This document shows positions 397 to 60,504 of a DNA stretch of 64,000 bases, one piece after another. The notes under the pieces are model-generated. The model saw nothing but the letters and a program-made list of their open reading frames with translations. It was not told where the DNA came from and searched no databases. The stretch is from a phage. The translations under genes were made by a program, and so were the position numbers. The first letter of the stretch is position 1; each line of letters opens with the position of its first letter. The stretch lies in NCBI GenBank assembly GCA_019326865.1, contig GCA_019326865.1_4101.1. The stretch is one strand, 5' to 3'.

Positions 397-722
397 TGGA
401 TTTAAAGCCAATCGTGGTTAACAAATACAAAGAACCGTATGATGTGTACATTGGTCGTGGGTCTAAATGGGGTAACCCATTTACCCATATCAATGATAAA
501 CAGACGAAAGCCGAGTTCATTGTTGCTACAAGGGAAGAATCAATCGAAAAGTTCAGAGAATACATATTTGAACGTATTTCTAATGGCGAAGTTAAAATTG
601 ATGATTTACTTGAATTAGCAGGGAAACGTCTTGGTTGTTTCTGTAAACCAAAATCATGTCATGGTGATGTTCTCGTTGAAATAGTGAGTGCAATACTAGA
701 TGAATTACCAGACGATAATTAA
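393..722 (+). CDS. DUF4326-family protein
   Basis: 109 aa; [15 protein letters not shown] and [13 protein letters not shown] motifs as remembered for DUF4326; start overlaps upstream stop. Confidence 0.55.
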
Positions 723-1179
723 AGATGACCTTATTAATGGTGAGGGGGTGAGATGTTCTCTTTTTGTTAGTGGGTGTAGTCATGGGTGTGCCGAATGCTT
801 TAACGAAGTTGCATGGGACTACCGAAGTGGACAAGAGTTCAGTACTGAAACAATTGATACAATTTTAGCTGAACTCAGTAAGCCGTACATCAGTGGGTTA
901 TCACTCCTTGGTGGAGATCCTCTAATGAAAAAGAACATCGAAACAATTTTAGAATTATGTAAAATTGTAAAAGATACTTATCCAAATAAAACTATTTGGT
1001 GCTGGAGTGGGTATACTTTAGAAGAGATTATGGATAATCATGCCTCTCCAATACTGGAGTACATTGATGTATTAGTTGATGGTAAATTTATTCTTGAAGA
1101 AAAGAATTTAAAATTACCATTTAGAGGCTCTAATAATCAACGTATTCTTCGCAAAGGCGTAGATTATGCATTATCTTGA
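700..1179 (+). CDS. nrdG: anaerobic ribonucleotide reductase activating protein (radical SAM)
   Basis: N-terminus [33 protein letters not shown] closely parallels E. coli NrdG including the Cys cluster. Confidence 0.9.
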   Translation: MNYQTIIKDDLINGEGVRCSLFVSGCSHGCAECFNEVAWDYRSGQEFSTETIDTILAELSKPYISGLSLLGGDPLMKKNIETILELCKIVKDTYPNKTIWCWSGYTLEEIMDNHASPILEYIDVLVDGKFILEEKNLKLPFRGSNNQRILRKGVDYALS

Positions 1180-1208
1180 TATTACAGAAACGTGGAAATA
1201 TATGAAGA

Positions 1209-1231
1209 AGCACCCTTTGGGTGCTTTTTTT
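1209..1231 (+). terminator. intrinsic terminator after nrdG
   Basis: stem AGCACCC/GGGTGCT, 3-nt loop, T7 run. Confidence 0.6.
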
Positions 1232-1279
1232 ATACTATAATAAATACACTATGGATATCTATATAAAAGGGATATATAT

Positions 1280-3979
1280 ATGGCAAATAAAATATATGGT
1301 GGCATTGATGTTACACACAATGTCACAGTAAAAGGTAAGAGAAGTGCTCAGAGCATTAATGATGACGTATTTGATGAAAACGGTAATCTCACAATAGATG
1401 CATATACACAAGATGATATGTTAGAAATGGTTGGTATGTTACCAATTTCTCGTTATGGTACACAAAACTATCTACCTGCTGGTGTTAATGGTACAACAGT
1501 TGGTTCTTCAGAAAATGTGAATTCCAGAAATACAAAATTATTTTTAGAAGATGATAACACTTTAGTAATGTTACGTCCAGGTACTAATGGTAGTACTCAA
1601 GGTGTTTATTATAGTTATATGACCCAAGCAGTAGGTACAACAAATACAAGTCGTATGGTTAATACTACTCGTGCATATAAACCCAATTACTTTGGTGCAG
1701 CATACGCAGTTTATTTGTACCCAAGTAGTAATGATATTACTTGCGGTTTAGTGAGAATGGAGAATACCGATGGTACATATGTTGATAAAGTTTTTGTGTC
1801 AGATAATAATGGTACATTGAATGATGCAATGCACACTGGTATTATTCTATCAGATCATACAGCAGTACAACCTTTTGGTGCAATACAATTTGTTATTCGT
1901 GCAGAAGATGGTGCATTATATTTTTTTAGTTTAGATACACCAAATAATACTCTTAAAATATCCGTTACTAAAGTTACTTTTAATCCAAGTAATAACCCAG
2001 GTGGTGGTACTTATAGTATTACTAGAATTACTGGTTGGACTACAAGAACTTTTTATAATGCAATGATAGCTGATGAGAACATTGTTCCTACGATGAAAAT
2101 AAATTCAACAAATGCCAATGATACTCCATACGTTTTAATCCCAAGCGGTATTATTGGGTTTGGTGTTTATATGACAGATCCAGATTTATATGTTGCACAG
2201 AAATCAGGTACATCTACATTCAAATTTAGATTATGTGGTGATATGTGGATGAGTAATGGTAGATATGACACACGACCACAACATAGTTTTAGTATGACTT
2301 TTGATGTTGCAACGAAGCAATGTGCACTCGATAATATGACAACGACTGCACCTGTTGCTGTTTATGACAATGGTTCTAGCATGAATGCAACTGGACCTTG
2401 CTTGACAACTGACCCATTTTATCTTCATGCAGGTGCACGTAATATTTTCAGTAATTATTGCTATGTTCCATCAACAGGGGATGCGTTTTGTTCATTTTCA
2501 CCAAACCTAGCAGAACCATTGAATGTATCATATGCAAAATACCCACCAAAATCTTTATTTGATTTGATGGATGTTAGAAGTGTGTCAGCAACTAATTTTA
2601 TTAATGGTGTAGTATCACCAAGATTTGGTTCAGCAGTTGGTTCATACCAAGTAGGTGTAGAGTTATTACCAAATAACAGTACTAAACAATATTCAAGACG
2701 TTCTGGTGATGGTCGTTTTTTTCCATCCTATGCTGTTCATAAATCTACACCAAACTTTACATTCAAGTCATTGAGTTATGGTACAGTTCCTGGTTATGAA
2801 CCAACACCTGACCGAAATTTCATAACAACACCAGAATCACGAATTTTTATAAGTTCAATATCTGGTTCAAACGTCACTACTAATGGTGGTGTTTTGGTTG
2901 CTGACATTAGAACATCAACACCAATTAGTTTTGATTATAAAGGTAATGTACTGAATAATGGTACAATCAGTATGTCTCAAGATATAATGAATGCTATTAG
3001 GAATTCAGAATTTGCTAAAGTTGCTGGTTCTTGGGATATATCCCCAGCATCAGTAAAAACATTATCAGTTTTCGTTCCACAACAAACTGATATTCCTGTT
3101 TTCGCCGTTCTTGCTGCAACAACTAATTCCAGAGGACTATATATTCGTATGATTGAATTAGGTGTTAATACAAGAACAGGAGATATTACAACGTGGGCAT
3201 TTAAACGTTTAGTACATGAAAGTGTTCAAGCCCTGGATTACAAAACTGATGCCGGATATTATCTTGATAGTGGAAGTATTGGTATTACTATATATGATGC
3301 TGGTTCTTTTTACTTCATTGGTGGTGGTATTCCAGGTTTCTTTCCTACAGTTGGTAATACAGCTTCACCTTTTTTTCGTGCTACTGTAGATAAAGCAAGT
3401 AAGCAATTTAATAATTTCCATATAGCTGGTTATCGTCCCATCTATGCATTAGACGGTCAACCGTTCGCTTTACCTGGTATTGGATTTGGTATTCTTCAAA
3501 GTATAGATCTTCAAAACAAAACCATTTTTAGAACATATGGTACTACATTAGAAGATTATAATGCATGGACTGATAAAGGGAATCCATTCATTTGCGTTGT
3601 TTCACAAGACGTTGCTCAAGGTTTTATTATATACTTCACCGAAGAGACACCAGTACTGATATCTGGTAAGCACTATACGTTACCAATATCAAATATTGAT
3701 TTAACAAAAGTGAAAGCAAATCCTGCGAATACTACATTTTATGTGTATATTAAATTAGTGCAGGGTATTGCAAAGTATCATATATCAACAACTGAATTAG
3801 CTGAAACTCAGTCAATATTCTGGATTGGTACAGTGAAAACTAATGATTTACAAATAACCGAAATTAATATCGTTAAACGTTCGCGTTTAGATCTGTTTGG
3901 TGCATCCTATGACGCTGCCGGAAGTTCATTCCCAGTTAGTTCTGGTTTTCCTTCAGGTTCTGGCAATGTGAATTGGTAA
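1280..3979 (+). CDS. tail fibre protein, paralog A
   Basis: 899 aa, S/T/N/G-rich; N-terminal LPISRYGTQNYLP module and C-terminal module shared with ORFs at 3990 and 4595. Confidence 0.6.
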   Translation: MANKIYGGIDVTHNVTVKGKRSAQSINDDVFDENGNLTIDAYTQDDMLEMVGMLPISRYGTQNYLPAGVNGTTVGSSENVNSRNTKLFLEDDNTLVMLRPGTNGSTQGVYYSYMTQAVGTTNTSRMVNTTRAYKPNYFGAAYAVYLYPSSNDITCGLVRMENTDGTYVDKVFVSDNNGTLNDAMHTGIILSDHTAVQPFGAIQFVIRAEDGALYFFSLDTPNNTLKISVTKVTFNPSNNPGGGTYSITRITGWTTRTFYNAMIADENIVPTMKINSTNANDTPYVLIPSGIIGFGVYMTDPDLYVAQKSGTSTFKFRLCGDMWMSNGRYDTRPQHSFSMTFDVATKQCALDNMTTTAPVAVYDNGSSMNATGPCLTTDPFYLHAGARNIFSNYCYVPSTGDAFCSFSPNLAEPLNVSYAKYPPKSLFDLMDVRSVSATNFINGVVSPRFGSAVGSYQVGVELLPNNSTKQYSRRSGDGRFFPSYAVHKSTPNFTFKSLSYGTVPGYEPTPDRNFITTPESRIFISSISGSNVTTNGGVLVADIRTSTPISFDYKGNVLNNGTISMSQDIMNAIRNSEFAKVAGSWDISPASVKTLSVFVPQQTDIPVFAVLAATTNSRGLYIRMIELGVNTRTGDITTWAFKRLVHESVQALDYKTDAGYYLDSGSIGITIYDAGSFYFIGGGIPGFFPTVGNTASPFFRATVDKASKQFNNFHIAGYRPIYALDGQPFALPGIGFGILQSIDLQNKTIFRTYGTTLEDYNAWTDKGNPFICVVSQDVAQGFIIYFTEETPVLISGKHYTLPISNIDLTKVKANPANTTFYVYIKLVQGIAKYHISTTELAETQSIFWIGTVKTNDLQITEINIVKRSRLDLFGASYDAAGSSFPVSSGFPSGSGNVNW

Positions 3980-11224: not shown

Positions 11225-11599
11225 ATGAGTATACTAGAAATAATAGTTTCAAACATTCTTATTCCATATTGGAAACCAATTTCTTTTGCATTATTAATTA
11301 GTGGTTCAGCAATTGCGGGTTGGAAAGCTAATACTTATTATACTGGTTATCAAGAAAGTATAGAGCAACAAATAGCCAAAAAAGTTGATATAGCACTTGA
11401 TAAAATGCAACAAGAAAATACAAAAAGCTATCTTGAAACAAAAAAAATTATGGAAGATAATACAAAAGTCATTGAAACAAAGGTTCCTTATATAGTAGAA
11501 CGTGAAGTTTATAAAAATGTTTGTTTAGATGAAGATGGTGTAAAAGTACTGAATGAACTTAAACAAAATTCTAAAGCGGCAAGGAATAAATTCAAATGA
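11225..11599 (+). CDS. putative i-spanin (Rz-like)
   Basis: 124 aa; N-terminal hydrophobic TM segment then charged helical region; overlaps the next gene by 4 nt. Confidence 0.5.
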   Translation: MSILEIIVSNILIPYWKPISFALLISGSAIAGWKANTYYTGYQESIEQQIAKKVDIALDKMQQENTKSYLETKKIMEDNTKVIETKVPYIVEREVYKNVCLDEDGVKVLNELKQNSKAARNKFK

Positions 11600-21942: not shown

Positions 21943-22275
21943 ATGCTAAATCTAAATATTCAAGGCAACGTTGATATCACTCCAGCAATCCAAGATGCTA
22001 TTTACAATGAAGCAAAAAGTCTGGATAAGTACCGTACTTCTTCAGTACTAGACATTGGTGTTCATGTTAAGAAAGAGCATAAAACTCAATATGCTGTAAC
22101 TTTAACTGCTGGTAGTAAATCAGTAACTGCTGATGATGCTGATTTGTATAAAGCAATTGTTGAATCTTTTGATAAGATGGAAACTGTATTCAGTAAAGAC
22201 AAAAGCATTAAATTACACCGCCGAAACCATCCAGAACACCCCGTTCTTGATGATTTGACAGAAAACGAAGAGTAA
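21943..22275 (+). CDS. hpf: ribosome hibernation promoting factor (HPF/YfiA family)
   Basis: MLNLNIQGNVDITPAIQDAI...YAVTLTAGSKSVTADDADLYKAI aligns along its length with E. coli HPF (MQLNITGNNVEITEALREFV...). Confidence 0.8.
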   Translation: MLNLNIQGNVDITPAIQDAIYNEAKSLDKYRTSSVLDIGVHVKKEHKTQYAVTLTAGSKSVTADDADLYKAIVESFDKMETVFSKDKSIKLHRRNHPEHPVLDDLTENEE

Positions 22276-22285
22276 TATATACTAA

Positions 22286-22314
22286 AGGGACAGATTAATT
22301 CTGTCCCTTTTCTT
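22286..22314 (+). terminator. intrinsic terminator
   Basis: stem AGGGACAGA/TCTGTCCCT, T-run. Confidence 0.7.
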
Positions 22315-22328: not shown

Positions 22329-22724
22329 ATGAATTATTCCTGGATGGAAATTGTAAAATCTATAATATCAACACATGATATGGACTTACCTGAACACCTA
22401 GTTATTAATAGATGGTTCTATCCATATCCAGATAACCGTTGTGTTGGGATTGGATTTTTTATTAATGAAAAATCTCAATATATTGGATTAATTGAAGATT
22501 ATACAAAACCCAACATTGCGTTCTCTATTGAGTTGAATGTAGATCACATAAAATACTACACTAATAAAATGGACGAAGACGATGGTGATGTTATAATTCC
22601 AGCAGAAATAGACGAAGCTTCATTTTTTCAGTTATCATTAATCCATGATGTATCTGATATTACTTATGATAATGTGAAAGACCTTTTTATATTGTACAAT
22701 AAACTGTATAATTACTTTTTATAA
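22329..22724 (+). CDS. hypothetical protein
   Basis: 131 aa ORF. Confidence 0.55.
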   Translation: MNYSWMEIVKSIISTHDMDLPEHLVINRWFYPYPDNRCVGIGFFINEKSQYIGLIEDYTKPNIAFSIELNVDHIKYYTNKMDEDDGDVIIPAEIDEASFFQLSLIHDVSDITYDNVKDLFILYNKLYNYFL

Positions 22725-22737
22725 TGGAGATAAATTT

Positions 22738-22923
22738 ATGGAATATACAATATGTATAGTTATATGTATCATATCCTTACTAGTCGGGGTTGGTGTGATG
22801 ATTTATTGTGATGCAGAACCAAGTACAGAAGCAGGAACAACTATTGAACTTAAGCCTGGTATTAAGGTAAATGATTCATATTGTTACGATCCACATAGTA
22901 ATAAGTATGCGATTTGTCTATGA
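22738..22923 (+). CDS. small membrane protein
   Basis: 61 aa; N-terminal TM helix ICIVICIISLLVGVGVMIY. Confidence 0.5.
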   Translation: MEYTICIVICIISLLVGVGVMIYCDAEPSTEAGTTIELKPGIKVNDSYCYDPHSNKYAICL

Positions 22924-23330
22924 AAAAGTTTGATATTAAACCTATGATTGATGCTATCGAAATTAAATTAAAAAATACTAAAAAGCCAGATAGTACAGGT
23001 TTGTTCTTTAGTTTAGATAAAATGTATTATGAAACACACGTGTCAAGTTATGATAGAACAGGAAATCTCTTCATCCGTACATATAACTTATTTTATAGTG
23101 AAGATGTTTTTATGATAGATATAAATCTGGATGAAAGTATAGTGTTGATGTATATTGAGGATGTTCAATCCACAGAACAACGAAACGGGACTCTTCCTAT
23201 TGCTGCTACAGAGGAAGAGTTTTTGCAATATCAGTTCATTGAGGATACCTTTGGTATTGACTTTGATACATATCAGAGTATAATGAGGGTATACGAACTT
23301 TATGAGGATTATGTGATTGGACGTTACTAA
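22914..23330 (+). CDS. hypothetical protein (paralog pair with ORF at 23317)
   Basis: C-terminal block QYQFIEDTFGIDFDTYQSIMRVYELYEDY resembles QYMFIDDTFSIDYPSFQCILDIHAKYYDR. Confidence 0.6.
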   Translation: MSMKKFDIKPMIDAIEIKLKNTKKPDSTGLFFSLDKMYYETHVSSYDRTGNLFIRTYNLFYSEDVFMIDINLDESIVLMYIEDVQSTEQRNGTLPIAATEEEFLQYQFIEDTFGIDFDTYQSIMRVYELYEDYVIGRY

Positions 23331-23739
23331 AATTCCAAAATTTAATGAAACGTTAAAGTACTTTGCTGAACACGAAATCAGTACTGAAAGACGTGGTTTA
23401 ATTACATATAATCAACATCGTGTTATGTACACTAATAATTTTCAGGGTACTGTTCGTATTAAATATCGTAATGCACTCGAAGACAATGATGAATTGTTAA
23501 TTTTACTAAGAAAAAGTAAGATTGAATTGACATACGTAACTCACCATATTGAAAGTGAGTTGATGTGGCACACCCTATCAAAAAAAGAAGGTTCATTACC
23601 AGTTGTTGATAATGGTCCTGAAACACTTGATCAGTACATGTTCATTGATGATACATTTAGTATTGACTATCCTTCATTTCAGTGTATACTAGATATACAT
23701 GCAAAATATTACGACCGTCTACGTGACAGATTAATTTAA
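23317..23739 (+). CDS. hypothetical protein (paralog pair with ORF at 22914)
   Basis: 140 aa; see paralog. Confidence 0.6.
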   Translation: MDVTKIPKFNETLKYFAEHEISTERRGLITYNQHRVMYTNNFQGTVRIKYRNALEDNDELLILLRKSKIELTYVTHHIESELMWHTLSKKEGSLPVVDNGPETLDQYMFIDDTFSIDYPSFQCILDIHAKYYDRLRDRLI

Positions 23740-23874
23740 TTGGAGGCATTGTGATTACGGTATTAGAAGAAGATTGGGGTGTTTCCGAACAAGGAACTGA
23801 TGAATATGAATACCCAGAATATAAGCCTAAAGGATTCTGGGAACGTCTACGTGATTGGTTGATGGGGGAATAAT

Positions 23875-24987
23875 ATGAAAAAGTATTTGGTTGGAGGTTA
23901 TACGAGAGATCGTTTAATGGGCATCCGTGCAAAAGACAAAGATTATGTCATTGTTGGTGCAACTGAATCCGATATTAAGTACTTGCAAAGTATTGGTTAT
24001 AAGCAAGTAGGCAAGGACTTCCCTGTGTACTTGAGTCCAGAGGGTAATGAACACGCATTGGCTCGTACCGAGCGTAAGACTGGTACTGGATATGGTGGCT
24101 TCGAAGTGAATACAAAAGGTGTAACACTAGAACAAGATCTATATCGCCGTGATCTCACAATCAATAGTATTGCGTATGATCCAGTACTACAGATTCACAT
24201 CGACCCTTATGGTGGGAAAGCTGATATCAAGAACAAAGTACTTCGTCATGTATCAGAACACTTTAAAGAAGATCCATTGCGTGTTCTACGTTTGGCCCGT
24301 TTCGCTACACGTTACTCAGACTTTTCTATCCATGAAAGTACAGAGGAACTTGCTATTGGTATGGTCAATAGTGGTGAATTAGATCATCTTGTTCCAGACC
24401 GTGTTTTTGTAGAATTTGAAAAAGCATTTTCTGAAGAAAAACCTGCAAAGTTCCTTAAGACGCTAAGTAAATTTGGTTATTATGAGAAAGTTTTCAAAAC
24501 ATCTCTAACTAAAAAGAATTTAGACCTAATTGATTATATTTCTGAAAACTGTACTGATGTATATAAGCCATATTTTTTATGGTCAGTACTTCTTGAAAAT
24601 GAAGAAGTAAATAATGATTCAGTACTTAACGGTGCTATTAAAGTTCCAGTTAAGTATGTTAAATTTAGCAATTATATCAAACGTTTCCGTGATGATATCA
24701 AAACATTTCGTAAAAAGACCCCAAATGAAATGGGACAGTTATTACTGGAAATGAATATCAAGAATAACGGTGGTGAAGAATTTCTTTACAAAGTACTGGA
24801 ATATTTCATTCTAAGTAAAGAAATTGATTTAGAACTTGAAGATCTAATTATTAAAGTTTATGATCGATATACTGATGTTGAATTACCTGATATTCAGCAA
24901 TTGGTTAAAGATGGTGAACTAGAAACGTCAGAAATTCGTGATTTTGTTTGTGAACTTCGTTACGAAGCAATCAAACAAATGTTCTAA
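23875..24987 (+). CDS. cca: tRNA nucleotidyltransferase (CCA-adding enzyme, class II)
   Basis: LVGGYTRDRLMG...KDKDYVIVGAT...DFPVYLSPEGNEHALARTERKTGTGYGGFEV...RRDLTINSIAYD parallels the E. coli Cca head domain; 370 aa, no obvious HD domain. Confidence 0.8.
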   Translation: MKKYLVGGYTRDRLMGIRAKDKDYVIVGATESDIKYLQSIGYKQVGKDFPVYLSPEGNEHALARTERKTGTGYGGFEVNTKGVTLEQDLYRRDLTINSIAYDPVLQIHIDPYGGKADIKNKVLRHVSEHFKEDPLRVLRLARFATRYSDFSIHESTEELAIGMVNSGELDHLVPDRVFVEFEKAFSEEKPAKFLKTLSKFGYYEKVFKTSLTKKNLDLIDYISENCTDVYKPYFLWSVLLENEEVNNDSVLNGAIKVPVKYVKFSNYIKRFRDDIKTFRKKTPNEMGQLLLEMNIKNNGGEEFLYKVLEYFILSKEIDLELEDLIIKVYDRYTDVELPDIQQLVKDGELETSEIRDFVCELRYEAIKQMF

Positions 24988-25094
24988 AAATAGTGAGACA
25001 AAAAACCAATAACTGATATAATTATTAGTATCTGAACATCGATTGATGAAAAAGAGATAAGATATGCGTTATAGTTGTGGTATAATATTTTATC

Positions 25095-25496
25095 GTGATG
25101 GTCAGATACTTATCGGACATACAACACGGACAGAAACATTGGGATTTACCTAAAGGAAAAGCAGAGGGCGATGAAACGTTCAAAGAAGCTGCTGTGCGTG
25201 AATGTTTTGAAGAGACAGGATATAAAATCGATGAAGATGATCTTCTGTTTCTTGGTGATGTATCCTATAGAAAGGGAAAAAGGTTGGTTCTTTTCTTTTA
25301 TACTGCTAAAGACAAGCCTGTACCAGATGAATTAGTATGTAAAAGCACTTATACTAATAGATATGGTAAGAGTCATCCAGAATTGGATAAGTTCATGTAT
25401 ATTGATGTACGAGAATGTCAAAAGTATTTGACTGAACGAATGTGTAACAGTATTATAAAAGCTGTTAAAGCTTTTCAAAGAAATAAAAGGAAATAA
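25095..25496 (+). CDS. Nudix hydrolase (N-terminal strand encoded in another frame at 25064-25153)
   Basis: Nudix box GKAEGDETFKEAAVRECFEETGY; GTG start; upstream frame encodes MRYSCGIIFYRDGQILIGHT. Confidence 0.7.
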   Translation: MMVRYLSDIQHGQKHWDLPKGKAEGDETFKEAAVRECFEETGYKIDEDDLLFLGDVSYRKGKRLVLFFYTAKDKPVPDELVCKSTYTNRYGKSHPELDKFMYIDVRECQKYLTERMCNSIIKAVKAFQRNKRK

Positions 25497-25497
25497 T

Positions 25498-25746
25498 ATG
25501 AAAGTTAAAATTTATGGTCGCACGACTGGATGTAAATTTTGTGATACTGCAAAAGCTGTGTGTGAACAAAATAATTTTGATATGGAGTTCATTGATATTG
25601 TTGCTGAAGGTATTGATGGTGCTAAACTATCAGAAATTTGTGGTGAACCAGTTCGTCAAGTTCCACAGATTTTCGTGAATGATGTTTATGTACCAGGTGG
25701 TTGTACTGGATTTATCGAAGGACTTAAAGAAGGTCGTTGGAAATAA
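25498..25746 (+). CDS. nrdC: glutaredoxin (NrdC-like)
   Basis: 82 aa; CKFC redox motif near N-terminus; overall similarity to T4 NrdC layout. Confidence 0.75.
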   Translation: MKVKIYGRTTGCKFCDTAKAVCEQNNFDMEFIDIVAEGIDGAKLSEICGEPVRQVPQIFVNDVYVPGGCTGFIEGLKEGRWK

Positions 25747-26327: not shown

Positions 26328-26804
26328 ATGATTCATGAACACCGAGGTAATCTGTTTGAATTATTCAGTACTGTTACCGATGATCAAAATGCATTACATA
26401 TTATTGCTCACGGATGTAATGCTCAAGGTAAGATGGGTTCCGGTTTCGCAAAGGAACTAAGGAATCGCTACCCAATGGCATATGATGATTATAAAGCATA
26501 TGAAAAGGAAATGGGATTTCTTAGAATTGGACAAATTGCATATTCAGCAATTAACGATAATTTGATTATTGCAAACTGTATTACCCAAAAAATGTACGGT
26601 AATGACGGTGCTAAATATGTCAGTTATGATGCAATTGACGATGTGTTCAAACATCTAAATTATTTTTGTAAAGTTGATCAAGATGTTCATGTACATTTCC
26701 CGAAAATTGGAGCCGATTTGGGTGGCGGTAACTGGAACGTTATCAAAGAAATCATTGATCACCGACTGGTCAATGCAGAAAAACACTTATACATTCTAAA
26801 ATAA
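26328..26804 (+). CDS. macro domain protein (ADP-ribose binding/processing)
   Basis: HIIAHGCNAQGKMGSGFAKEL and FPKIGADLGGGNW match the macro-domain N-x(6)-G-x-G and hydrophobic-P-x-I-G-x-G signatures. Confidence 0.65.
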   Translation: MIHEHRGNLFELFSTVTDDQNALHIIAHGCNAQGKMGSGFAKELRNRYPMAYDDYKAYEKEMGFLRIGQIAYSAINDNLIIANCITQKMYGNDGAKYVSYDAIDDVFKHLNYFCKVDQDVHVHFPKIGADLGGGNWNVIKEIIDHRLVNAEKHLYILK

Positions 26805-27149: not shown

Positions 27150-27527
27150 ATGGCTGCTAATGACGTTAAAGTAAAAACTATTCAAGCTATCGTAGTACTG
27201 AAAGATTCAACTCCATCTCCTAAAGAATTGGTAATGGCTGGGATGACAATGCTTCATCAATACAATCCTGAATCACCAAATTATGTTCAAGAATACGAAG
27301 CAAAGCAGTTTAAAGAACATTGGCAGTCATGGATTAAAGATAATGAAATGGAGCAAGTTGTTTATGCTGCTGATGACATTTTCGAATTAGAACAAATTGA
27401 ATATCTAGCAGGTCAACAATCTGTGCCGTTGAGTATCTTCGGTAATGGTGAAGAAGTCTTAGTTCTAGGACCATTCACTGCCGATGTAATTACACACTTA
27501 CTAAGTAATTGTGAAAAAATTGGCTAA
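27150..27527 (+). CDS. hypothetical protein
   Basis: 125 aa ORF. Confidence 0.55.
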   Translation: MAANDVKVKTIQAIVVLKDSTPSPKELVMAGMTMLHQYNPESPNYVQEYEAKQFKEHWQSWIKDNEMEQVVYAADDIFELEQIEYLAGQQSVPLSIFGNGEEVLVLGPFTADVITHLLSNCEKIG

Positions 27528-28609: not shown

Positions 28610-30604
28610 ATGAATAATGAAGAATTGAAAAAACTTTTGTTGTCAAAACATATTAATTCATGGGTACATTTATACAAAGGGGACTCTCATGTGAGGGATC
28701 TCCTTTCTGTTTTTGGAATAGAACCAAAAACTGATTTCGAAATATATAAAATTCTATATATGTTCATGAATGATATAACAACAGTTCCAACTGCATATTG
28801 TGGAAAAAAAGCAAGATACAAAAATTATCAAAAAGGATTTTATAAATTTTGTGATGATTATGTAATTAATAAGAAAAATACGTGTAATGTATGCCATGAG
28901 ATGTATTATAAAAATCGAACTAATAAAACAAAATCAACATTAATGAATATGTATGGTGTATCTAATGTATCCCAGATCCAAGAAGTAAAACAAAAGAAAG
29001 AAAAAACTAACATTGAACGTTATGGTGTCTCTACTAATTTACAGACAACAGAATCTAAAGAGAAAATCAAACAAACTAATATAGAGCGATATGGATGTGA
29101 ATATCCAAATCAAAACCCTGAAATATTCAATAAAGTAAAAGAAACAAATTTAAAAAAGTACGGTGTTGAATTCCAAAGTAAAAGAAATGAAGTAAAAGAG
29201 AAAGCCAAAAATACAAATATATTAAGATACGGAACTGAGTATTCTTTATCATCACCGACTATTCGTGAAAAAATCAATAAAACAAATCTTGAACGATATG
29301 GTGGAAACCCACTATCAAATAAATTTATCCAAGATAAAATAAAAAACACCAACACATTGAAGTATAATTCATTTTACCCAATGAGCAATATGAGTGTTCA
29401 GGAAAAAGTTCATAATACCAATGTGGAGAGATATGGTGTAAAACACCCAGCCCAAAATAATTCTATTATTGAAAAAATGAAAGAAACCACAAAAAATAGA
29501 TATGGTTCAGAACATTACTCACAAACTGATGAGTATAAAGAAAAAATGTCATTTGCTCGTCTAGATGAAAGATATAATATAATTGTTGCAAATATTGATA
29601 AAAACTATATTCCATTATTTGAAAACACCGACCTGATGATGAAAGTTAATACAGACGAATACCCATTTTGGTGTGAGTATTGTGATGATTTGTTTTATAG
29701 TAAGTATAAAAATCATAAAGTGAAATGTAAGTGTCAGAAAAATAATGGTCATTCATTGAAAGAGAAAGATTTAGTTGATTATATAAAATCATTAATACCA
29801 AATATGCAAATTATAGAAAATGACCGTTCAGTACTGAAACCTAAAGAGTTGGATGTGTATATCCCTGACCGAAATCTAGCTATTGAATTTAATGGTGTGT
29901 ATTGGCATAATGATGAAAATGTCAATTCCACTAAACATCAAGATAAGGTATTGGATTGTTTAAAACATGGGGTAAATCTTATTCACATTTATGAAGATGA
30001 ATGGGATAACCCATTAACAAATAAAATTATCAAGGAACGTTTAAAGAATAAACTTCTAGTGTCAAATAGAATTTATGCTAGAAAATGTACTGTTAGAAAT
30101 ATAGACAAACAAGTAAGTAATATGTTTACTAAATCACACCATATTCAAGGTGTTGCACAAGCAAGTATTCACATTGGTCTTTATTATGGAAGTGATTTAG
30201 TTGCAGTTATGACCTTTGGTAAATCAAGGTTTGATAAAAACTATGAATATGAATTAATCAGATACTGTTCATCCGGTACAGTTGTTGGTGGTGCATCAAA
30301 ATTACTAAAATATTTTGAAACAGTATATAATCCACAATCATTATTGACATATGCTGATATGGATTGGAGTAGTGGTGATCTTTATACAGTTCTTGGCTTT
30401 GAGTTTGATAGCTATACAGAACCTGGATATTTTTATTATGACCCACAAACACATGAGAGGATTTCACGTCAGAAATGTCAAAAACATAAATTGGTCAAGA
30501 AAGGTCATGATATCAACTTAACCGAGAGACAAATTTGCTGTGAGGTATTGGGATATTATAAGATTTACAACTCTGGTAATATAAAATACACAAAAAAATA
30601 TTAA
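28610..30604 (+). CDS. multidomain protein: Cys-rich N-terminus, nine tandem repeats of about 23 aa, PD-(D/E)XK nuclease-like domain, C-terminal domain of unknown function
   Basis: repeat core K-x-T-N-x-E-R-Y-G occurs nine times; ELDVYIPDRNLAIEFNGVYWH resembles the DUF559/Vsr-like nuclease core. Confidence 0.6.
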   Translation: MNNEELKKLLLSKHINSWVHLYKGDSHVRDLLSVFGIEPKTDFEIYKILYMFMNDITTVPTAYCGKKARYKNYQKGFYKFCDDYVINKKNTCNVCHEMYYKNRTNKTKSTLMNMYGVSNVSQIQEVKQKKEKTNIERYGVSTNLQTTESKEKIKQTNIERYGCEYPNQNPEIFNKVKETNLKKYGVEFQSKRNEVKEKAKNTNILRYGTEYSLSSPTIREKINKTNLERYGGNPLSNKFIQDKIKNTNTLKYNSFYPMSNMSVQEKVHNTNVERYGVKHPAQNNSIIEKMKETTKNRYGSEHYSQTDEYKEKMSFARLDERYNIIVANIDKNYIPLFENTDLMMKVNTDEYPFWCEYCDDLFYSKYKNHKVKCKCQKNNGHSLKEKDLVDYIKSLIPNMQIIENDRSVLKPKELDVYIPDRNLAIEFNGVYWHNDENVNSTKHQDKVLDCLKHGVNLIHIYEDEWDNPLTNKIIKERLKNKLLVSNRIYARKCTVRNIDKQVSNMFTKSHHIQGVAQASIHIGLYYGSDLVAVMTFGKSRFDKNYEYELIRYCSSGTVVGGASKLLKYFETVYNPQSLLTYADMDWSSGDLYTVLGFEFDSYTEPGYFYYDPQTHERISRQKCQKHKLVKKGHDINLTERQICCEVLGYYKIYNSGNIKYTKKY

Positions 30605-47653: not shown

Positions 47654-48582
47654 TGAAACAACTACAAGAACTATATCAAAAAATTCTAGATGAAGGCGTA
47701 GAAAGCGTTGACCGTACTGGTGTTGGAACAATTAAACTTATTGGTCAACAAATGCGTTTTGACCTTAAAGATGGTTTCCCAGCCGTGACGACAAAACGTC
47801 TAGCTTGGAAAGCAATGACTTCAGAATTACTATGGTTTATTGAAGGTTCCCATGATGAACGTCGCCTTTGTGAAATTTTGCATGGAACTCGTGATACAAA
47901 AAAGAAAACTATTTGGACAGATAATTATCTAAATCAAGGTGTTGCTCTTGGTTATACTGATGGTGAGTTGGGTCCAGTGTATGGTAAGCAATGGCGTGAA
48001 TGGGAAGATTATAAATTTAGTTCCAGAACTGAAGAAATTCAAGAATTAAAAGATAAAGGATACAAAGTTATCGATTATACTGGTTCACATGGTGTTGTTA
48101 TGAAACGTACAACTGACCAATTACAGGAACTAATCAAAGGTATAAAGTCCGATCCATATGGTCGTCGCCACATTCTAAGTGCATGGAACGTTGGTGAGCT
48201 TGATGATATGACGTTACCACCTTGTCATAGCTTTGTGCAATTTTGTGTAGTACAAGGGAAACTAAGCTGCATTCTACATCAACGCTCCGCTGATCTTTTT
48301 TTGGGAGTTCCATTTAATATCAGTAGTTACTCACTACTAACTCATATGATTGCACAAATTACTGGTTTAGATGTTGGTGAATTTATTTGGAATGGTGGTG
48401 ATTGTCACATTTATAAAAACCACGTTGAACAAGTAAAAGAACAACTACTGCGAGAACCCCGTGAATTACCTGAATTGTGGCTTGATCCTACAATTACTAA
48501 TATTGAAGATTTCACAATGGATTCTTTCAAATTAGTGAATTACAACCCAATGCCAACAATTAAAGCACCGATGGCTGTATAA
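47653..48582 (+). CDS. td: thymidylate synthase
   Basis: LPPCHSFVQFCVVQGKLSCILHQRSADLFLGVPFNISSYSLLTHMIAQ contains the catalytic Cys region and conserved ThyA blocks; ORF uninterrupted. Confidence 0.9.
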   Translation: MKQLQELYQKILDEGVESVDRTGVGTIKLIGQQMRFDLKDGFPAVTTKRLAWKAMTSELLWFIEGSHDERRLCEILHGTRDTKKKTIWTDNYLNQGVALGYTDGELGPVYGKQWREWEDYKFSSRTEEIQELKDKGYKVIDYTGSHGVVMKRTTDQLQELIKGIKSDPYGRRHILSAWNVGELDDMTLPPCHSFVQFCVVQGKLSCILHQRSADLFLGVPFNISSYSLLTHMIAQITGLDVGEFIWNGGDCHIYKNHVEQVKEQLLREPRELPELWLDPTITNIEDFTMDSFKLVNYNPMPTIKAPMAV

Positions 48583-48584
48583 AC

Positions 48585-48614
48585 GAAAAGGGAGAACATC
48601 AGTTCTCCCTTTTT
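48585..48614. terminator. bidirectional intrinsic terminator between td and the minus-strand fibre gene
   Basis: stem GGGAGAAC/GTTCTCCC flanked by an A-run upstream and T-run downstream. Confidence 0.75.
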
Positions 48615-48615
48615 A

Positions 48616-50886
48616 TTATCTAATTGTTACCAATGTTCTTCCGTCGAAACGTACATCAGGAGTTGAAGGTATACTGAACACTACGTTAGTGCCGTTAAAC
48701 GTCACGCTATCGACCTCAACACGAGTATAGACCCCAGGACTAACCTGTTCCTGTATCTCTGCTGTGACGATGTTTGAGGCTGTTACAGTAAGGGTGTAGT
48801 AATTACCACTTAATACCCAAGATGAAATGGTAAATGCATCGGTTCTTACTGAACCTGAACCAATTGGAACCCATTGACCTTGAACTTTTTGCATTGAAGT
48901 ACGCTCGGTATTGGAGTATGCAATCATACCATCAACACCGACAGAGTTATCAATAGTAGCTAGTACTGGTAATTGAATACCATATCTATTGAAACGTGTT
49001 CTAATAGTTCCATTATCATAGATACTTACATCAGCATAATCACCCATTGAAAGTTTCAAATCTGAATCAACTAATTGCATTGTACTTTGATTAGTAGGGC
49101 TTTCTAACGTAATTATTCCATTTGCCAATAAGCTTAAGTTTTTAAATTTATTCGAAACACCATTAAATGTCGTATTAGCATTGAAAGTACTCGTGCCATT
49201 AACTACTATTGTGTTTTCTGCGGCTGCACCTAATATAGTATTACTTTGAACAATCAAATTACCACTTGTAGTAATATTAGTAGCTGTAGTATCACCATTT
49301 AATTTTGTATTAGCATTGAAAGTACTAGTACTATTAACTACTAATGTGTTTGTAGCGTTGTCACCTAATATAGTATCACTTTGAACATTCAAATTACCAC
49401 TTGCAGTAATATTAGTTGCTGTAGTATCACCATTTAATCTACTTGTACCATCAACTACAATATTACTATTAAATTTTGTATTAGCTTTAAAAGTACTAGT
49501 ACTATTAACTACTAACGTGTTTGCTGCGGTGTCACCTAATATTGTATTGCTTTGAACATTCAAATTACCACTTGCAGTAATGTTACTAGCTGAAGTATCA
49601 CCAATTAATCTACTTGTACCATCAACTACGATATTACCATGAAAATCGCTTTCACCGTTTTTAAATTCAACTTGTACTGAATACATAGAACTAAATGAAA
49701 TTATATTACTACTTGCACTTATACCAACATTAGTATTAGTTGGATTATCGAAGTGTAATATTGGAGTTAATGCTGGTGTTGTTGTTGTTTGATAGAGTGT
49801 TAGTGATGAGTTGTTAATTCTCACACGTTCATTTCCAGCAGTACTAAATCCAATAGCATCATCAGCAGGATGAAAAATACCAGTATTAGTATCAGACCAT
49901 TTATCAGGATCATTTCCAGGATTACTTGTTGGGTCGAATGGCTTATTATTAAATGCAATCGCTGGGGCAGAAGCACTCCCATATATAACACCAAAACGCC
50001 CAGACCCTATTGTACCGTCATCGTACATTGAATCGCCTGTTCTACGTAAACATTCAATTACAACATTATCTATGGAAGTTTGAACTGTACCAGCATTAGT
50101 TCTGAATTGGCGATTATTTGCAATCATAATAGTGTTATCATATAACACAGAAGCTGCTGAAATACTTGTTCTAGATTGGCGAAGGCGTATGTTTTTATCT
50201 TCAGTAATAATAATCCAGTCACCATCAGATAGTGCTGTTTGATTCATTGGTACACCGGAAGCAAACGGCTTAGTTAAATCATCATCAGTTACCAAATTAA
50301 CAAGTCCACTATGTCCCTCACTAGGGATAGAAGTTGAAATAATTCTCGCAAAAGCGTATGTTACTAGCTTTTCACCCGATATATTTGGGTTAGAATCAAC
50401 ATAATATAAAATTTCAACCCAATTCCCTTGCCCAGTTGGGTTGGTTGGAGTAAATGTAACAGGGCTTGTTTTTGGTTTATTCGCTTCAAAATGTGCTTGG
50501 GCGGCATCCATAATACCACGCACAACATAATAATCACCACTAAGTGATGATGATGGTGCAGGTAGTGGGCTTTGGGCTAACGGTGGGTCAATATCATCTG
50601 GAATTGGATTATATGTACCAACAAACTGTAAACCGCTAGTTACTGAGTCTGGTAATTGAGATGTGAGAAGTTTACCATTTGCATCTAAGTTAGCGAAACG
50701 CCTATATGCCATTGAACCATCTTCAAAATCCAGAACGCCCTCAAACGATTTCCATTCTTTATTGTATCTAATCATCCCTGATCTTATTACATCAGCGGTT
50801 TCTTTTGATGGTGCTTTTGGTAATTCTAAAAAAGATTTACTATCAATAATTACACCACCATCACCTCTAATTCGATTTATACTCAT
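48616..50886 (-). CDS. tail fibre protein with internal tandem repeats
   Basis: 756 aa; repeated NANTKFNSNIVVDGTSRLNGDTTATNITASGNLNVQS-type units. Confidence 0.65.
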   Translation of the reverse strand: MSINRIRGDGGVIIDSKSFLELPKAPSKETADVIRSGMIRYNKEWKSFEGVLDFEDGSMAYRRFANLDANGKLLTSQLPDSVTSGLQFVGTYNPIPDDIDPPLAQSPLPAPSSSLSGDYYVVRGIMDAAQAHFEANKPKTSPVTFTPTNPTGQGNWVEILYYVDSNPNISGEKLVTYAFARIISTSIPSEGHSGLVNLVTDDDLTKPFASGVPMNQTALSDGDWIIITEDKNIRLRQSRTSISAASVLYDNTIMIANNRQFRTNAGTVQTSIDNVVIECLRRTGDSMYDDGTIGSGRFGVIYGSASAPAIAFNNKPFDPTSNPGNDPDKWSDTNTGIFHPADDAIGFSTAGNERVRINNSSLTLYQTTTTPALTPILHFDNPTNTNVGISASSNIISFSSMYSVQVEFKNGESDFHGNIVVDGTSRLIGDTSASNITASGNLNVQSNTILGDTAANTLVVNSTSTFKANTKFNSNIVVDGTSRLNGDTTATNITASGNLNVQSDTILGDNATNTLVVNSTSTFNANTKLNGDTTATNITTSGNLIVQSNTILGAAAENTIVVNGTSTFNANTTFNGVSNKFKNLSLLANGIITLESPTNQSTMQLVDSDLKLSMGDYADVSIYDNGTIRTRFNRYGIQLPVLATIDNSVGVDGMIAYSNTERTSMQKVQGQWVPIGSGSVRTDAFTISSWVLSGNYYTLTVTASNIVTAEIQEQVSPGVYTRVEVDSVTFNGTNVVFSIPSTPDVRFDGRTLVTIR

Positions 50887-50929
50887 TTAAATATTTCCTC
50901 AGAATAGATTATATATGATGTATTTATTT

Positions 50930-50965
50930 TAGATAAAAGAAAAGGCCAAGTATAAACTTGACCTT
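50930..50965 (-). terminator. intrinsic terminator (minus strand)
   Basis: imperfect 10-bp inverted repeat AAGGCCAAGT/ACTTGACCTT with A-run on + strand (U-run on minus transcript). Confidence 0.5.
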
Positions 50966-50970
50966 GAAAA

Positions 50971-51750
50971 TTATTTAGTACGTTCAGGTATATCAATATC
51001 TTCATATACCCAACTCGCAGCTTGTTGTGCTTTATAAATTGCGTTAGGGTCAGAATCATCAACTGCATCAATTGCTTCACATTGTTTATCACAATCAGAA
51101 AATAGTTTTTCAACCATTGCAAGTGATTCAGTATATAGTTGTGTCATTTCTTCCGCTGTTAGTTTTACTATAGCATCATCAAGAATAATAGTAACATTTT
51201 CAGCACCAGATACAACTTGTGTATAATAATTAAGAAGCATTTGGCGACCCGCAAGATCTGTATTATAACGATGTTCTTTGAATACATAACCAGCATTAAT
51301 TCGATTAGTACGTTCTGATAAAGTTCGTTCTTTCAAATCTTTTTTCACATCGGAAATTGGTACATCGACATAATTGTATGTTTTAAGTACAGTCAATGCT
51401 TTGTATTCACCAGTTGCATCTTCTAAAAATTCAACGACTGGTTGTTTTTCATCTTTTAATCTAATATATTCCAATGGTTGACCATTCTTGTTTATATTGC
51501 CTACATTTTTATACTCTAACCACCAAAAACCTTCTTCTTTTCTCACCTCATCATTTGGTTCCACTGGAGAACCATCATAACTGGAAATACCATACAAAGT
51601 TCTAATATCGCTATAAAGATAACGATAGGTCTGTGAATCATCTGGAATTGCACCAGGGCGTTCTTTAAGACCTTTAACACCGATTGGGTTTGAGATGATA
51701 CTACCCAATTCATAGTTTTCCTTTGAATTACCTTTCACATATGTGAACAT
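50971..51750 (-). CDS. hypothetical protein (tail fibre-associated?)
   Basis: 259 aa ORF between two fibre genes; GAGGTAG RBS. Confidence 0.6.
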   Translation of the reverse strand: MFTYVKGNSKENYELGSIISNPIGVKGLKERPGAIPDDSQTYRYLYSDIRTLYGISSYDGSPVEPNDEVRKEEGFWWLEYKNVGNINKNGQPLEYIRLKDEKQPVVEFLEDATGEYKALTVLKTYNYVDVPISDVKKDLKERTLSERTNRINAGYVFKEHRYNTDLAGRQMLLNYYTQVVSGAENVTIILDDAIVKLTAEEMTQLYTESLAMVEKLFSDCDKQCEAIDAVDDSDPNAIYKAQQAASWVYEDIDIPERTK

Positions 51751-51815
51751 ATAACTACCTCACTTGTTACGATGGTGTCACCCAAGTAAGGTGACACCTT
51801 TTATTTTAATTATTA

Positions 51816-54800
51816 TTAAGCAGTACGTTGAGCAATAAACATATCTGCTACTGAACTTACACCATCATAAATTACCTGATAGATAGTTACAGAGTTTGCA
51901 GTTTTGTTAAGTGTTCCATCAACTACAGCATATGTACCATCGGTAGTAAAGTTTCTATTACCAGTTGCATCTTGTTTAACATAAATGTATACTGACGATG
52001 CTTTACCACCACCAATTAGACCAGTAATAGGTGCTAGTGTTGTATCTTGATCAAGTGTGATAAAGTATACGTTGCTAGTCCCGTCAGGTGTCCAAGTACC
52101 AGATGGTGCAATAACAGAAGAAGTTACTTGATTTGGGATAACATCATATTTTTTGGTAGTTACTTTTGTCGTAGTGAAGTCTGCGTTGGTTGTAGATAAA
52201 TGTCCTGTTACAGTTACACCTTTGTCAAATACCGCATTTTCTTTGAAAGAAGATGTTGCATTAACAGTTAATGTATCAGAATCAGCATCACCTAACACAA
52301 CACTGCCATTTGCTGTCATTAAACCAGTAACAGTTAGCGTACCACCGATTGTTGCTTCACCAATTACAGATGCACTAGCAAGTGTAGCTGCACTAGATGT
52401 TGTAATAGTGGTAACAGTAGCGTCTTCAAGTGTGATGTTTGATGCTGTTAATTTACCATCAACCGTTAGGCTACCAGTAACATTTGCACCCGCTGACATG
52501 GTTACTGCTCCACCAAATGAACCTGTGGTAGTAACTTCAAGTGTATTACCTTTAAGTAATTTAGTTGCAGTTATATTTTCACCAGCAGTAATACTAGTAC
52601 CAGCAGCAACACCATTGGTTGCAGTTAGGGATTTAACGGATACATCAGAGTTTGATTGGTTAAGTGTAGCGTTTAGAGTGCCTGTTACAGTGAAGTCACC
52701 GTTGTTAACTACGTTACCGTTGATTGTTAAGTTATTATTTTTAGAACCAACATCACCGATGGTTGCAGATTTAGAAATCAATTCTGCACCAGATGTAATG
52801 TTACCTGCGGCACTAATGGTGTTAGCTGCATTAACTGCATAAGGTTCAATAGTTTGTCCACTAACATCGATATCAGCATTAATACCACCATCTACACGCA
52901 AAGAACCAGCAATGTAAGTGTTAGGGAAAATTTGAACAGTTTCTGTGTGTTCACCAACCTGTGTACCAATAATAACATTTGATCCAGTTTTTACTAAACC
53001 TTCAGATGTTATTGCACCCACAGTTGTTGTACCAGTAACGTCTAGTCTGCCACCAACTGTAGCGTTATTAGTTACTTTTAACGCAACATCTTCACCATTG
53101 ATAGTCATTGATGGTACAGATGCGTTTCCAGTAACATCTAGTGTTCCACCAATAGTTGCATTACCATCAGAATGTAAAGTTTTTGTAACAGAAAGACTGT
53201 TTGCAATTACATCCGCACCAGTCAAATCCAATGCACCTGGTGTTAATGTACCAGTAATGTTAACATTATTATCAAAGGTTGCTGCACCAGTAACATCTAG
53301 GGTAGAGCTAAATGTACCAGAAGTTGCAGAGATTGCACCAGATTCAAGTGAACCAACAGTGGTTTTTCCAGTTACACCTAGTGTACCGCCAACTGTTCCA
53401 TTTGTTGTAACTTCTAGTGTTCCAGTACTTAGATCTTTTGCTGTCACTTTGCCAGATGCGTTAATGGTTGTTGTTGTAACACCACCACTTAGAGTGCTTG
53501 CCCCAGTAACACTGAGTGTTTTTGCTGCACTAACGCTGTTTACAGTAAGATCAGCACCTGATAGGTCTAATCCACCTTCAGGAATAAAATTACCCTTAAC
53601 TGTTAGCTGTTGAACAGTACTGTCACCAGTGACATCTAGTGTAGAAGCAGTTAGACCACCATTCAGACTTGTTTCCCCAGTAACATCTAGTGTAGTTGTT
53701 ACAGTTGCACTGTTAAGAGTGGAGATACCGGAAATATTAGCACTTTGTGCAGTGATTGAGCCTTTATCAACTTGTACATCACCAGAAACAACTTTAATAC
53801 CACCAGCACTAACTGTTAGTTTTTCAGCAGTGTTCAAAGTACTTGAAATTGTTGTTGCACCAGTTAAGGTTGTAGTTCCAGCTACACTCATGTTTCCAGA
53901 GATAGATGGATTGCCTGTAATGTCACCAGTAGTGAGAACCAATTCAGTACCTACAGTAGTAGAACCAGTACTTTCTAATGTTACACCGACAATATTTGCA
54001 GATTTAAGGTCAATGGAGCCATCAACAGTCAAGTTGCCATGTACTGTTGCATCACCGAGTGAATTTAATGATTTCACAGAAACATCAGTTTTACTAAGGT
54101 CAATTACACCAGCAGTAAGTGTTCCAGATACTGCCAAATCACCAGTAATTGCTGTATTTTTCGTAATAGATACAGTTTCTGTTCCTGACGTAATTGAGCC
54201 AACAGTAAGTACACCACCAATGGTTGCATTGTTAGTTACAGTTAACGCTGTTTCTTCACCAGATAGTGTTAAAGAAATACCATTCATTTCACCAGTAATA
54301 TTTGCAGATGCCGCAGATATATCGCCAGCAACTACCGCATTTGTTGCGTTTAGAGTTGTTGTAGCAATTTCAGTACTTTTCACTTTAGGAAGTGCGTTGA
54401 TACCATCTTTACTATTAACTGTAATAATACCAGAACTTGTTAGAGATTTAACAGAAACATCTGCACCACTTAAGTTTACTGTTCCAGAAACAACTAGATC
54501 GCCACCAATATTAGCACCTTCTGTTGTAGTGATTGATTTTGCATTAACTTCAGTTTGGCTCAAATCAATTGTACCAGGTGATACAGTTCCAGAAACAGTA
54601 AGATTACCAGTAATGGTGGTATCATTAGAAATAGATACACCATCATCATTGCTAATTGTTGGGGTTTCAATAGTAACAGCTTTAACTTTACCTGAAGAAG
54701 TCATATCAGCAACAGTTGATGTACCAGTAACCTTTAGATTAGTAATATTTGCAGTAGTTGAACCAAGTGTAGTAATCGTACCATCAGTACTTTCTAGTTT

Positions 54801-57317: not shown

Positions 57318-57394
57318 TTATACCCTCCATTATAACCTTGTTAATATGTATATATTTAGTTTTATTCGTTTGTTAACTAATAATTTGTCAAAAT

Positions 57395-58334: not shown

Positions 58335-58350
58335 TTTAATTTAATCTCCT

Positions 58351-60492: not shown

Positions 60493-60504
60493 TGTGACAC
60501 CCCC

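Follow-up and report, generated by a model that had tools for sequence, protein, structure and literature searches.

CCA-adding enzymes have been recognized in jumbo phages for several years and have been discussed from more than one angle. RaK2 gp031 was proposed in 2013 to be a CCA-adding enzyme that matures the phage's own tRNAs (PMC3622015), a comparative survey in 2021 placed CCA-adding enzymes among the RNA-repair functions of jumbo phages (PMC7824862), and the paper describing phage Sharanji files the orthologue under translation (PMC11895373). The details that underpin specificity come from work on the wider class II family. In these enzymes the EDxxR motif acts as an amino-acid template that selects CTP and ATP, and motifs A and B are separated by a flexible loop of 10-12 aa (R65-F74 in E. 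coli Cca) that is essential if the terminal A is to be added; CC-adding enzymes have this loop deleted, and poly(A) polymerase can dispense with it (PMC2532741). The C-terminal part also sways whether a class II core produces CCA or poly(A), according to chimera work (Betat 2004, as cited in PMC2532741). HD-less class II enzymes carry out full CCA addition without HD activity, a point on which the human enzyme is contrasted with that of E. coli, and since all tRNA genes of E. coli encode CCA the host Cca serves there as a repair enzyme (PMC6961547). In the literature searched there was no biochemical or genetic characterization of any phage CCA-adding enzyme, orthologues of the gene described here included.

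For coliphage T4, a need for tRNA nucleotidyltransferase in tRNA maturation was reportedly described by Deutscher, Foulds and McClain in 1974. Processing of the CCA-less dimeric precursor of T4 tRNAPro and tRNASer calls for tRNA nucleotidyltransferase alongside RNase P and the host nuclease BN, and a CCA-bearing substrate is the one that RNase P favors (PMC11143913). T4 is in this respect a precedent for CCA-less phage tRNA genes that depend on the enzyme.

Here we examined a putative CCA-adding enzyme gene within a window of 64 kb, by which we mean the whole stretch of DNA that was analyzed (Table 1). With a probability of about 80%, and on the strength of sequence and modeled structure, we consider its product to be a template-independent class II tRNA nucleotidyltransferase that would carry out full CCA addition to tRNA 3' ends. 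A sequence-only reading made beforehand had delimited the ORF, and its coordinates and length proved exact; the ORF begins with ATG and lies on the + strand, and antisense ORFs over the gene each reach at most 55 aa and are without support. The region is approximately 92% identical at the nucleotide level to the Asteriusvirus jumbo coliphages 121Q, PBECO4, Sharanji, G17 and others, with genomes of approximately 350 kb, which bears out the phage origin ascribed to the DNA. An identical 370-aa protein is present on 4 contigs in public assemblies, one of them longer than 200 kb, and the nearest phage record shows 95.4% protein identity. The 121Q orthologue, gp539, is annotated 'tRNA nucleotidyltransferase', and the annotations in other records read 'CCA-adding enzyme' or 'multifunctional CCA protein', with 'cca' used in Sharanji. 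Compared with the 121Q orthologue (89.4% nucleotide and 94.6% protein identity), dN/dS is 0.054 overall, 0.049 in the head and neck and 0.063 in the C-terminal region. The gene is under strong purifying selection, and both of its halves are functional and constrained.

Table 1. Features of the CCA gene and its surroundings; positions are those of the 64 kb window and aa numbers those of the 370-aa protein.
Feature	Position	Strand	Details
HPF/RaiA-type ribosome hibernation factor homologue	21943-22275		upstream of CCA gene; Pfam E 3.3e-10
three small, tightly packed ORFs	22329-23739		upstream of CCA gene; two in one PHROG, two with a weaker match to another
Shine-Dalgarno-like GGGGGA	23864-23869	+	5 nt upstream of ATG, read from the sequence
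putative CCA-adding enzyme gene (class II tRNA nucleotidyltransferase)	23875..24987, including stop codon	+	370 aa, ATG start
motif A	23887..23958	+	aa 5-28, LVGGYTRDRLMGIRAKDKDYVIVG; catalytic carboxylates D21 and D23
flexible loop RKTGTGYGGF	24073..24102	+	aa 67-76; equivalent of E. coli Cca R65-F74
motif B RRDLTIN, ribose recognition	24145..24165	+	aa 91-97; R91, R92, D93, T95 and N97 invariant
motif C DPYGGKAD	24202..24225	+	aa 110-117; D110, G114 and D117 invariant
motif D EDPLR (EDxxR template)	24268..24282	+	aa 132-136; E132, D133, P134 and R136 invariant
neck region, Pfam PF12627 PolyA_pol_RNAbd	24319..24498	+	aa 149-208; E 6.5e-08
C-terminal all-helical body/tail	24499..24984	+	aa 209-370; histidine-free, presumed tRNA-binding
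NUDIX hydrolase	25095-25496		downstream of CCA gene
GrxA-like glutaredoxin	25498-25746		downstream of CCA gene
macro-domain protein	26328-26804		downstream of CCA gene; PDB macro proteins, E 1.5e-15

By profile and database comparison the ORF product is assigned to the class II tRNA nucleotidyltransferases, with similarity far beyond chance. Pfam recognizes the head domain as PF01743 (PolyA_pol; aa 4-124, E 9.7e-18), and a search of the 370-aa protein returned nothing beyond this family and PF12627 even at E<=1. The protein matches PHROG 2244, 'tRNA nucleotidyltransferase', over its full length (E 6.9e-115; aa 1-369 against positions 3-387 of a profile of 392), and its best database homologue has an E value of 2e-229. 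Approximately 76 full-length homologues in the database, at 48-94% identity, sit for the most part on contigs of hundreds of kb (around 350 kb) and include those of RaK2-like phages, GAP32, Erwinia pEa_SNUABM_50 and Salmonella PHA46; lower in the ranking come bacterial-type proteins whose match is confined to the N-terminal half. Across aa 1-207 the identity to the host-type Cca of Salmonella is 50.7%. The top NCBIfam models are CCA-enzyme equivalogs, led by PRK10885 'multifunctional CCA addition/repair protein' with 269.7 bits (aa 1-207 against model positions 1-207). None of the NCBIfam equivalog cut-offs is reached, the best being these 269.7 bits against the 451 set for PRK10885; this shortfall arises because the NCBIfam match covers the N-terminal 56% only and divergence is high over the C-terminal 160 aa, and the catalytic core is not its cause. 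Models of the PcnB poly(A) polymerase score 87.7 bits (TIGR01942, cut-off 305.65) and 46.7 bits (PRK11623, cut-off 702), and the A-adding enzyme model NF041569 scores 63.8 bits against a cut-off of 1440. Query aa 3 aligns with position 32 of the PcnB model, meaning that the N-terminal extension of poly(A) polymerase is absent.

Inspection of alignments of 20 and 85 sequences, which included a control protein (P0118) whose 652 bits lie above the PRK10885 cut-off, indicates that the predicted catalytic core is intact, with motifs A-D and the flexible loop all in place. In motif A, G7, G8, R11, D12 and D23 are invariant among the 85 sequences and D21 is at least 90% conserved. The segment around the flexible loop (aa 60-80) is equal in length in 84 of the 85 aligned sequences, the control P0118 among them, and its consensus, ALAR.ERK.G.GY.GF.V.T, is common to the phage family and its bacterial relatives. 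The four motifs on which the sequence-only reading had based its assignment to the class II head domain are present (GGYTRD at aa 7-12, DxD as DKD at aa 21-23, ARTERK at aa 63-68 and RRDLTIN at aa 91-97), and together with the PF01743 and PHROG 2244 matches they uphold that assignment.

The predicted structure is in keeping with this picture. An AlphaFold2 model built on the 85-sequence alignment (mean pLDDT 94.6, pTM 0.87) presents an alpha/beta head and is helical throughout the rest, the C-terminal region (aa 209-370) being modeled with confidence. The flexible loop lies within the block of lowest pLDDT, and low model confidence is as expected for a mobile element at this position. A Foldseek search of the PDB with the full-length model returned the CCA-adding enzyme of T. 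maritima (3h38; E 4.5e-15, TM 0.73), with further full-length matches to its tRNA complex (5hc9) and to the B. stearothermophilus CCA enzyme (1miv), TM ranging from 0.68 to 0.73 across 3h38, 5hc9 and 1miv. The A-adding enzyme of A. aeolicus (4wc2 and 1vfg), the human mitochondrial CCA enzyme and the poly(A) polymerase of E. coli (3aql, E 2e-11) were matched as well. The modeled fold confirms the head-neck-body-tail (seahorse) architecture of class II enzymes, though taken alone it cannot tell CCA addition, A addition and poly(A) synthesis apart.

The most marked departure from the host enzyme concerns the HD domain. No Pfam match to PF01966 was obtained in the 370-aa protein at E<=1, the signature blocks HPEIDT..H, HDLGK and HGHE of bacterial relatives that bear PF01966 are deleted or replaced across the phage family in the alignment, and aa 205-370 contain no histidine at all. 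These three observations agree with the earlier statement that no HD phosphohydrolase domain is evident. A single-sequence search with aa 209-370 gave only 5 hits among 1.84 billion representative proteins, all of them from one family of proteins of approximately 370-377 aa or fragments thereof. To place this region we compared profiles with hhalign using independently aligned sub-regions. The phage C-termini matched those of HD-less bacterial relatives with 97.9% probability (E 4e-13), and these relatives, every one of which falls under the equivalog cut-offs, matched HD-bearing enzymes with 98.0% probability (E 2.6e-13); the direct match between phage and HD-bearing C-termini is weak, at 65%, so that homology between the two is drawn transitively through the HD-less relatives. 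We read the C-terminal half as a strongly diverged, clade-specific and HD-inactivated remnant of the C-terminal region of proteobacterial Cca, a reading that rests on these profile comparisons. The HD domain of E. coli Cca removes 2',3'-cyclic phosphates through phosphodiesterase and phosphatase activity. With this domain lost, the phage protein alone could not heal ends that carry 2',3'-cyclic phosphates or were generated by nucleases, and the GenBank labels 'multifunctional CCA protein' and '2',3'-cyclic phosphodiesterase' therefore overstate its function. The sequence-only reading had suggested a minimal, HD-less CCA-adding enzyme; motifs, loop, fold and the NCBIfam ranking (270 versus 88 versus 64 bits) lend this suggestion computational support, with CCA addition as the predicted activity.

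A candidate substrate is found among the tRNA genes of the phage clade. ARAGORN detected neither tRNA nor tmRNA genes over the 64 kb of the window; the sequence-only reading had likewise noted no tRNA gene there and had looked to phage tRNAs encoded elsewhere. Sharanji is reported to carry seven tRNAs (PMC11895373), and in its record we place all seven genes, confirmed by ARAGORN, at 93.7-98.0 kb. In four of them, for tRNA-Thr(UGU), Asn(GUU), Ser(ACU) and Gly(UCC), the discriminator base is not followed by CCA; in the other three, for Met(CAU), Arg(UCU) and Ser(UGA), it is. The cluster is 100% identical in phage G17. RaK2, which belongs to a different genus, has 8 tRNA genes by ARAGORN, half without CCA (Arg, Ser-GCU, Asn and Thr) and half with it, and its Arg and Ser-GCU genes are missing both C residues. 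From the approximately 92% genome similarity to its relatives, we infer that the window phage itself carries the same tRNA cluster. The idea that the enzyme services phage tRNAs encoded outside the window thus finds direct support in close relatives, whose 7-8 tRNA genes are without encoded CCA in about half of the cases. This holds for two genera of the clade, and set against a host in which all such genes encode CCA it gives the phage gene a concrete rationale. The host already possesses Cca, and a phage copy is not obviously necessary on that account.

The most likely job of the enzyme is twofold, namely full CCA addition to phage tRNAs whose genes do not encode it and general repair of tRNA ends. 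The proposed mechanism is as follows. The protein would descend from a proteobacterial Cca and would since have lost the HD phosphohydrolase module. Its Pol-beta head, with the DxD carboxylates, RRD, the EDxxR template and the flexible loop, would perform the chemistry, adding C74, C75 and A76 to tRNA 3' ends without a nucleic acid template, while the helical neck, body and tail would grip the acceptor and T-arm of the tRNA. During infection the phage enzyme may complete tRNAs transcribed from CCA-less phage genes, supplementing the host Cca, and may also regenerate eroded CCA ends in general.

It is possible, though in our view doubtful, that the same biochemistry mainly serves counter-defense and repair, rebuilding tRNA 3' ends that have been clipped or modified by host toxins or defense systems. 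The sequence-only reading had offered the countering of host nucleases as its second role, for which the evidence weighs neither way. Several observations lean toward counter-defense. CCA-adding enzymes are grouped with RNA-repair systems in the jumbo-phage survey (PMC7824862), the RaK2 genome includes genes for a polynucleotide kinase and an RNA ligase (PMC3622015), and an RNA ligase lies upstream of the CCA gene in GAP32 and in a metagenomic relative, GAP32 having a 2H phosphoesterase there as well. Toxins directed against tRNA 3' ends are known, among them MenT, toxSAS/CapRel-type pyrophosphorylation and CdiA-CT, and maturation of phage tRNAs by the host Cca is conceivable in principle, T4 being a case in point. 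However, loss of the end-healing HD domain makes a dedicated counter-defense role harder to sustain, as the protein alone cannot heal nuclease-generated ends, and the literature searched contained neither evidence for a counter-defense role of a phage CCA-adding enzyme nor a defense system countered by one. The CCA-less tRNA genes offer the simpler explanation.

A more elaborate form of this idea arises from the neighborhood of the gene. The genes for lysozyme, (HPF), CCA, NUDIX, glutaredoxin, (macro), the gp13-like neck protein, dNMP kinase and sheath follow one another in conserved order in GAP32, a RaK2-like contig and a metagenomic relative with 51% identity. From this conserved adjacency one could propose that the CCA-NUDIX-glutaredoxin(-macro) block is a split anti-defense module that heals and rebuilds tRNA 3' ends. 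Stand-alone NUDIX and/or macro-domain hydrolases would then replace the lost HD domain and strip 3' blocks (CapRel/toxSAS-type pyrophosphate, cyclic phosphate or ADP-ribose), after which the CCA enzyme would rebuild the end. We consider such a module quite improbable. The NUDIX neighbor matches many subfamilies at the level of the Nudix box only, and the conserved adjacency may simply represent a block of auxiliary genes. A scan for promoters and terminators from 21.5 to 27.5 kb gave 36 promoter-like sites where 32 were expected from shuffles, and two extended -10-like elements were seen in the 107-nt gap ahead of the NUDIX gene. The tight packing from 22329 to 24987, taken with these elements before the NUDIX gene, conveys a weak impression of where transcription units may be bounded. 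A Pth2 identity for the ORF at 27150-27527, prompted by a weak match in the RaK2-like locus, was rejected (Pfam E 0.12).

Two further alternatives concern the reaction itself, and both are unlikely. The enzyme might be only partially active, adding A alone or CC alone, given that split CC- and A-adding bacterial enzymes share the same fold, that the A. aeolicus A-adding structures 4wc2 and 1vfg rank among the top matches, and that sequence by itself leaves room for A-only specificity. This is nevertheless improbable. CC-adding enzymes are without the flexible loop (PMC2532741), which the phage protein retains. Its head and neck are closest to the full CCA enzymes of Enterobacteria, as the identity to Salmonella Cca over aa 1-207 illustrates, the A-adding model remains at 64 bits against its cut-off of 1440, and an A-only enzyme could not serve the RaK2 Arg and Ser-GCU genes, from which both C residues are missing. 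Least probable of all is a poly(A) polymerase-like enzyme whose diverged C-terminus has switched its specificity toward tailing non-tRNA RNA, such as host mRNA destined for decay: the Pfam family names derive from poly(A) polymerase, the E. coli structure 3aql appears in the fold search, poly(A) polymerase keeps the same EDxxR template and C-terminal swaps alter specificity (PMC2532741), and the phage C-terminus is highly diverged, yet the PcnB models reach 88 and 47 bits against 270 for Cca, the protein begins directly at motif A without the N-terminal extension, a loop that is dispensable in poly(A) polymerase and essential for CCA synthesis (PMC2532741) is strictly conserved here in length and sequence, and profile comparison still reveals homology between the phage C-terminus and those of Cca.

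In summary, the feature is already known and ordinary. It is not novel because its orthologues in 121Q, PBECO4, RaK2, GAP32 and Sharanji have already been annotated and discussed, and it matters little as a discovery: a homologue of this class II tRNA nucleotidyltransferase is encoded in 410 of 50,697 phage records, 73 of which cover the full length. The yield is modest, in that the HD-less status of the protein corrects existing labels, the CCA-less tRNA genes give the gene a rationale, and a small biochemical gap is marked out. Among known systems, the closest are the Rak2-like orthologues (121Q gp539, PBECO4, Sharanji 'cca', RaK2 gp031 and GAP32; PHROG 2244), which at 367-374 aa have the same length and domain layout and share the HD-less C-terminus and the genomic position over a range of identity from 95% to about 50%; the window gene differs from them by allelic divergence only. 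The Cca of E. coli and Salmonella (PRK10885; P06961) is collinear with the phage protein through head and neck, with the same motifs A-D and a loop of equal length, but has an HD domain, whereas the phage protein is without one, is approximately 40 aa shorter and falls under the equivalog cut-off. The HD-less class II CCA enzymes of known structure, from T. maritima (3h38/5hc9), B. stearothermophilus (1miv) and human (1ou5/4x4w), have the same overall architecture, with TM up to 0.73 over approximately 400 aligned columns, but only 19-25% identity to the phage protein, and profile comparison suggests that the phage tail derives from an HD-type domain and not from these HD-less lineages. T4, finally, likewise infects E. 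coli and has its tRNA genes packed closely in a cluster, some of them CCA-less and dependent on tRNA nucleotidyltransferase; T4 uses the enzyme of its host, whereas the Rak2-like jumbo-phage clade has its own copy.

The putative CCA-adding enzyme gene is followed by a NUDIX hydrolase and a GrxA-like glutaredoxin in an order that is kept throughout the Rak2-like clade of jumbo phages, down to identities as low as ~51%, and of the three distant loci, two or more have a macro-domain gene next in line. The macro protein is similar to BT1257-type and ADP-ribose-1''-phosphate phosphatase macro domains, with weak similarity to DarG. The spacer separating the CCA and NUDIX genes holds two extended -10-like elements, which may represent a separate promoter for NUDIX-glutaredoxin; in the overall promoter scan, sites were no more frequent than the shuffled expectation.

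Features around the putative CCA-adding enzyme gene and in related phage loci (window positions unless a locus is named)
Feature	Position	Strand	Details
HPF/RaiA-type ribosome hibernation factor homologue	21943-22275	+	phage-encoded; Pfam Ribosomal_S30AE, E 3.3e-10
Terminator-like hairpin	22284-22310		11-bp palindrome, 3' of HPF/RaiA homologue
Small ORF 1	22329-22724	+	131 aa; phrog_36582
Small ORF 2	22914-23330	+	138 aa; phrog_20693
Small ORF 3	23317-23739	+	140 aa; phrog_20693
CCA-NUDIX spacer	24988-25094		107 nt
Extended -10-like element TGATATAAT	~25014-25022		within spacer
Extended -10-like element TGGTATAAT	~25076-25084		within spacer
NUDIX hydrolase	25095-25496	+	3' of CCA gene
GrxA-like glutaredoxin	25498-25746	+	3' of NUDIX hydrolase
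Macro-domain protein	26328-26804	+	3' of glutaredoxin
Homing-endonuclease-like ORF	28610-30604	+	664 aa; phrog_3339/559, Pfam DUF7487
GC-skew sign-change region	about 48000-62000
tRNA, anticodon CAU	Sharanji OR545507.1 (L003) 11374-11463		90 nt; tRNA cluster
tRNA-Ser, anticodon ACU (A34)	Sharanji OR545507.1 (L003) 11471-11562		tRNA cluster
RNA ligase (PF09414), DUF2828/DUF7788 protein, 2H-SAK phosphoesterase	GAP32 (L006) 1-2724
RNA ligase (PF09414), DUF2828/DUF7788 protein	metagenomic relative (L007) 474-3350

Directly upstream, the CCA gene is preceded by three close-set small ORFs in the same orientation, with which it may be co-transcribed. Their C-terminal sequences are alike, and the first two also have in common a weak match to phrog_17453. 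The HPF/RaiA homologue, which falls short of the TIGR00741 cut-off, is kept at the same position in 121Q and GAP32.

Further downstream, the homing-endonuclease-like ORF immediately follows a gp13-like neck gene and occupies the same place in a public contig (L004) and a RaK2-like contig (L008). It is missing at the corresponding position of 121Q, which suggests that it is a mobile insertion. Across the window, GC skew is positive over 1-48 kb and negative over 48-62 kb, and this change of sign near 48 kb is consistent with a switch of the predominant coding strand.

Within the Sharanji tRNA cluster, the CAU-anticodon tRNA is unusually long for a tRNA-Met, and the tRNA-Ser carries A34 in its anticodon. 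A tRNA-specific adenosine deaminase is also reported for Sharanji, and A-to-I editing of a phage tRNA is possible.

In the more distant clade members, GAP32 and the metagenomic relative, the genes for the RNA ligase and DUF2828/DUF7788 protein precede the lysozyme-CCA block by a few genes, which hints at a larger RNA-repair neighborhood that is non-contiguous in the lineage of the window; the GAP32 region differs in additionally carrying the 2H-SAK phosphoesterase.
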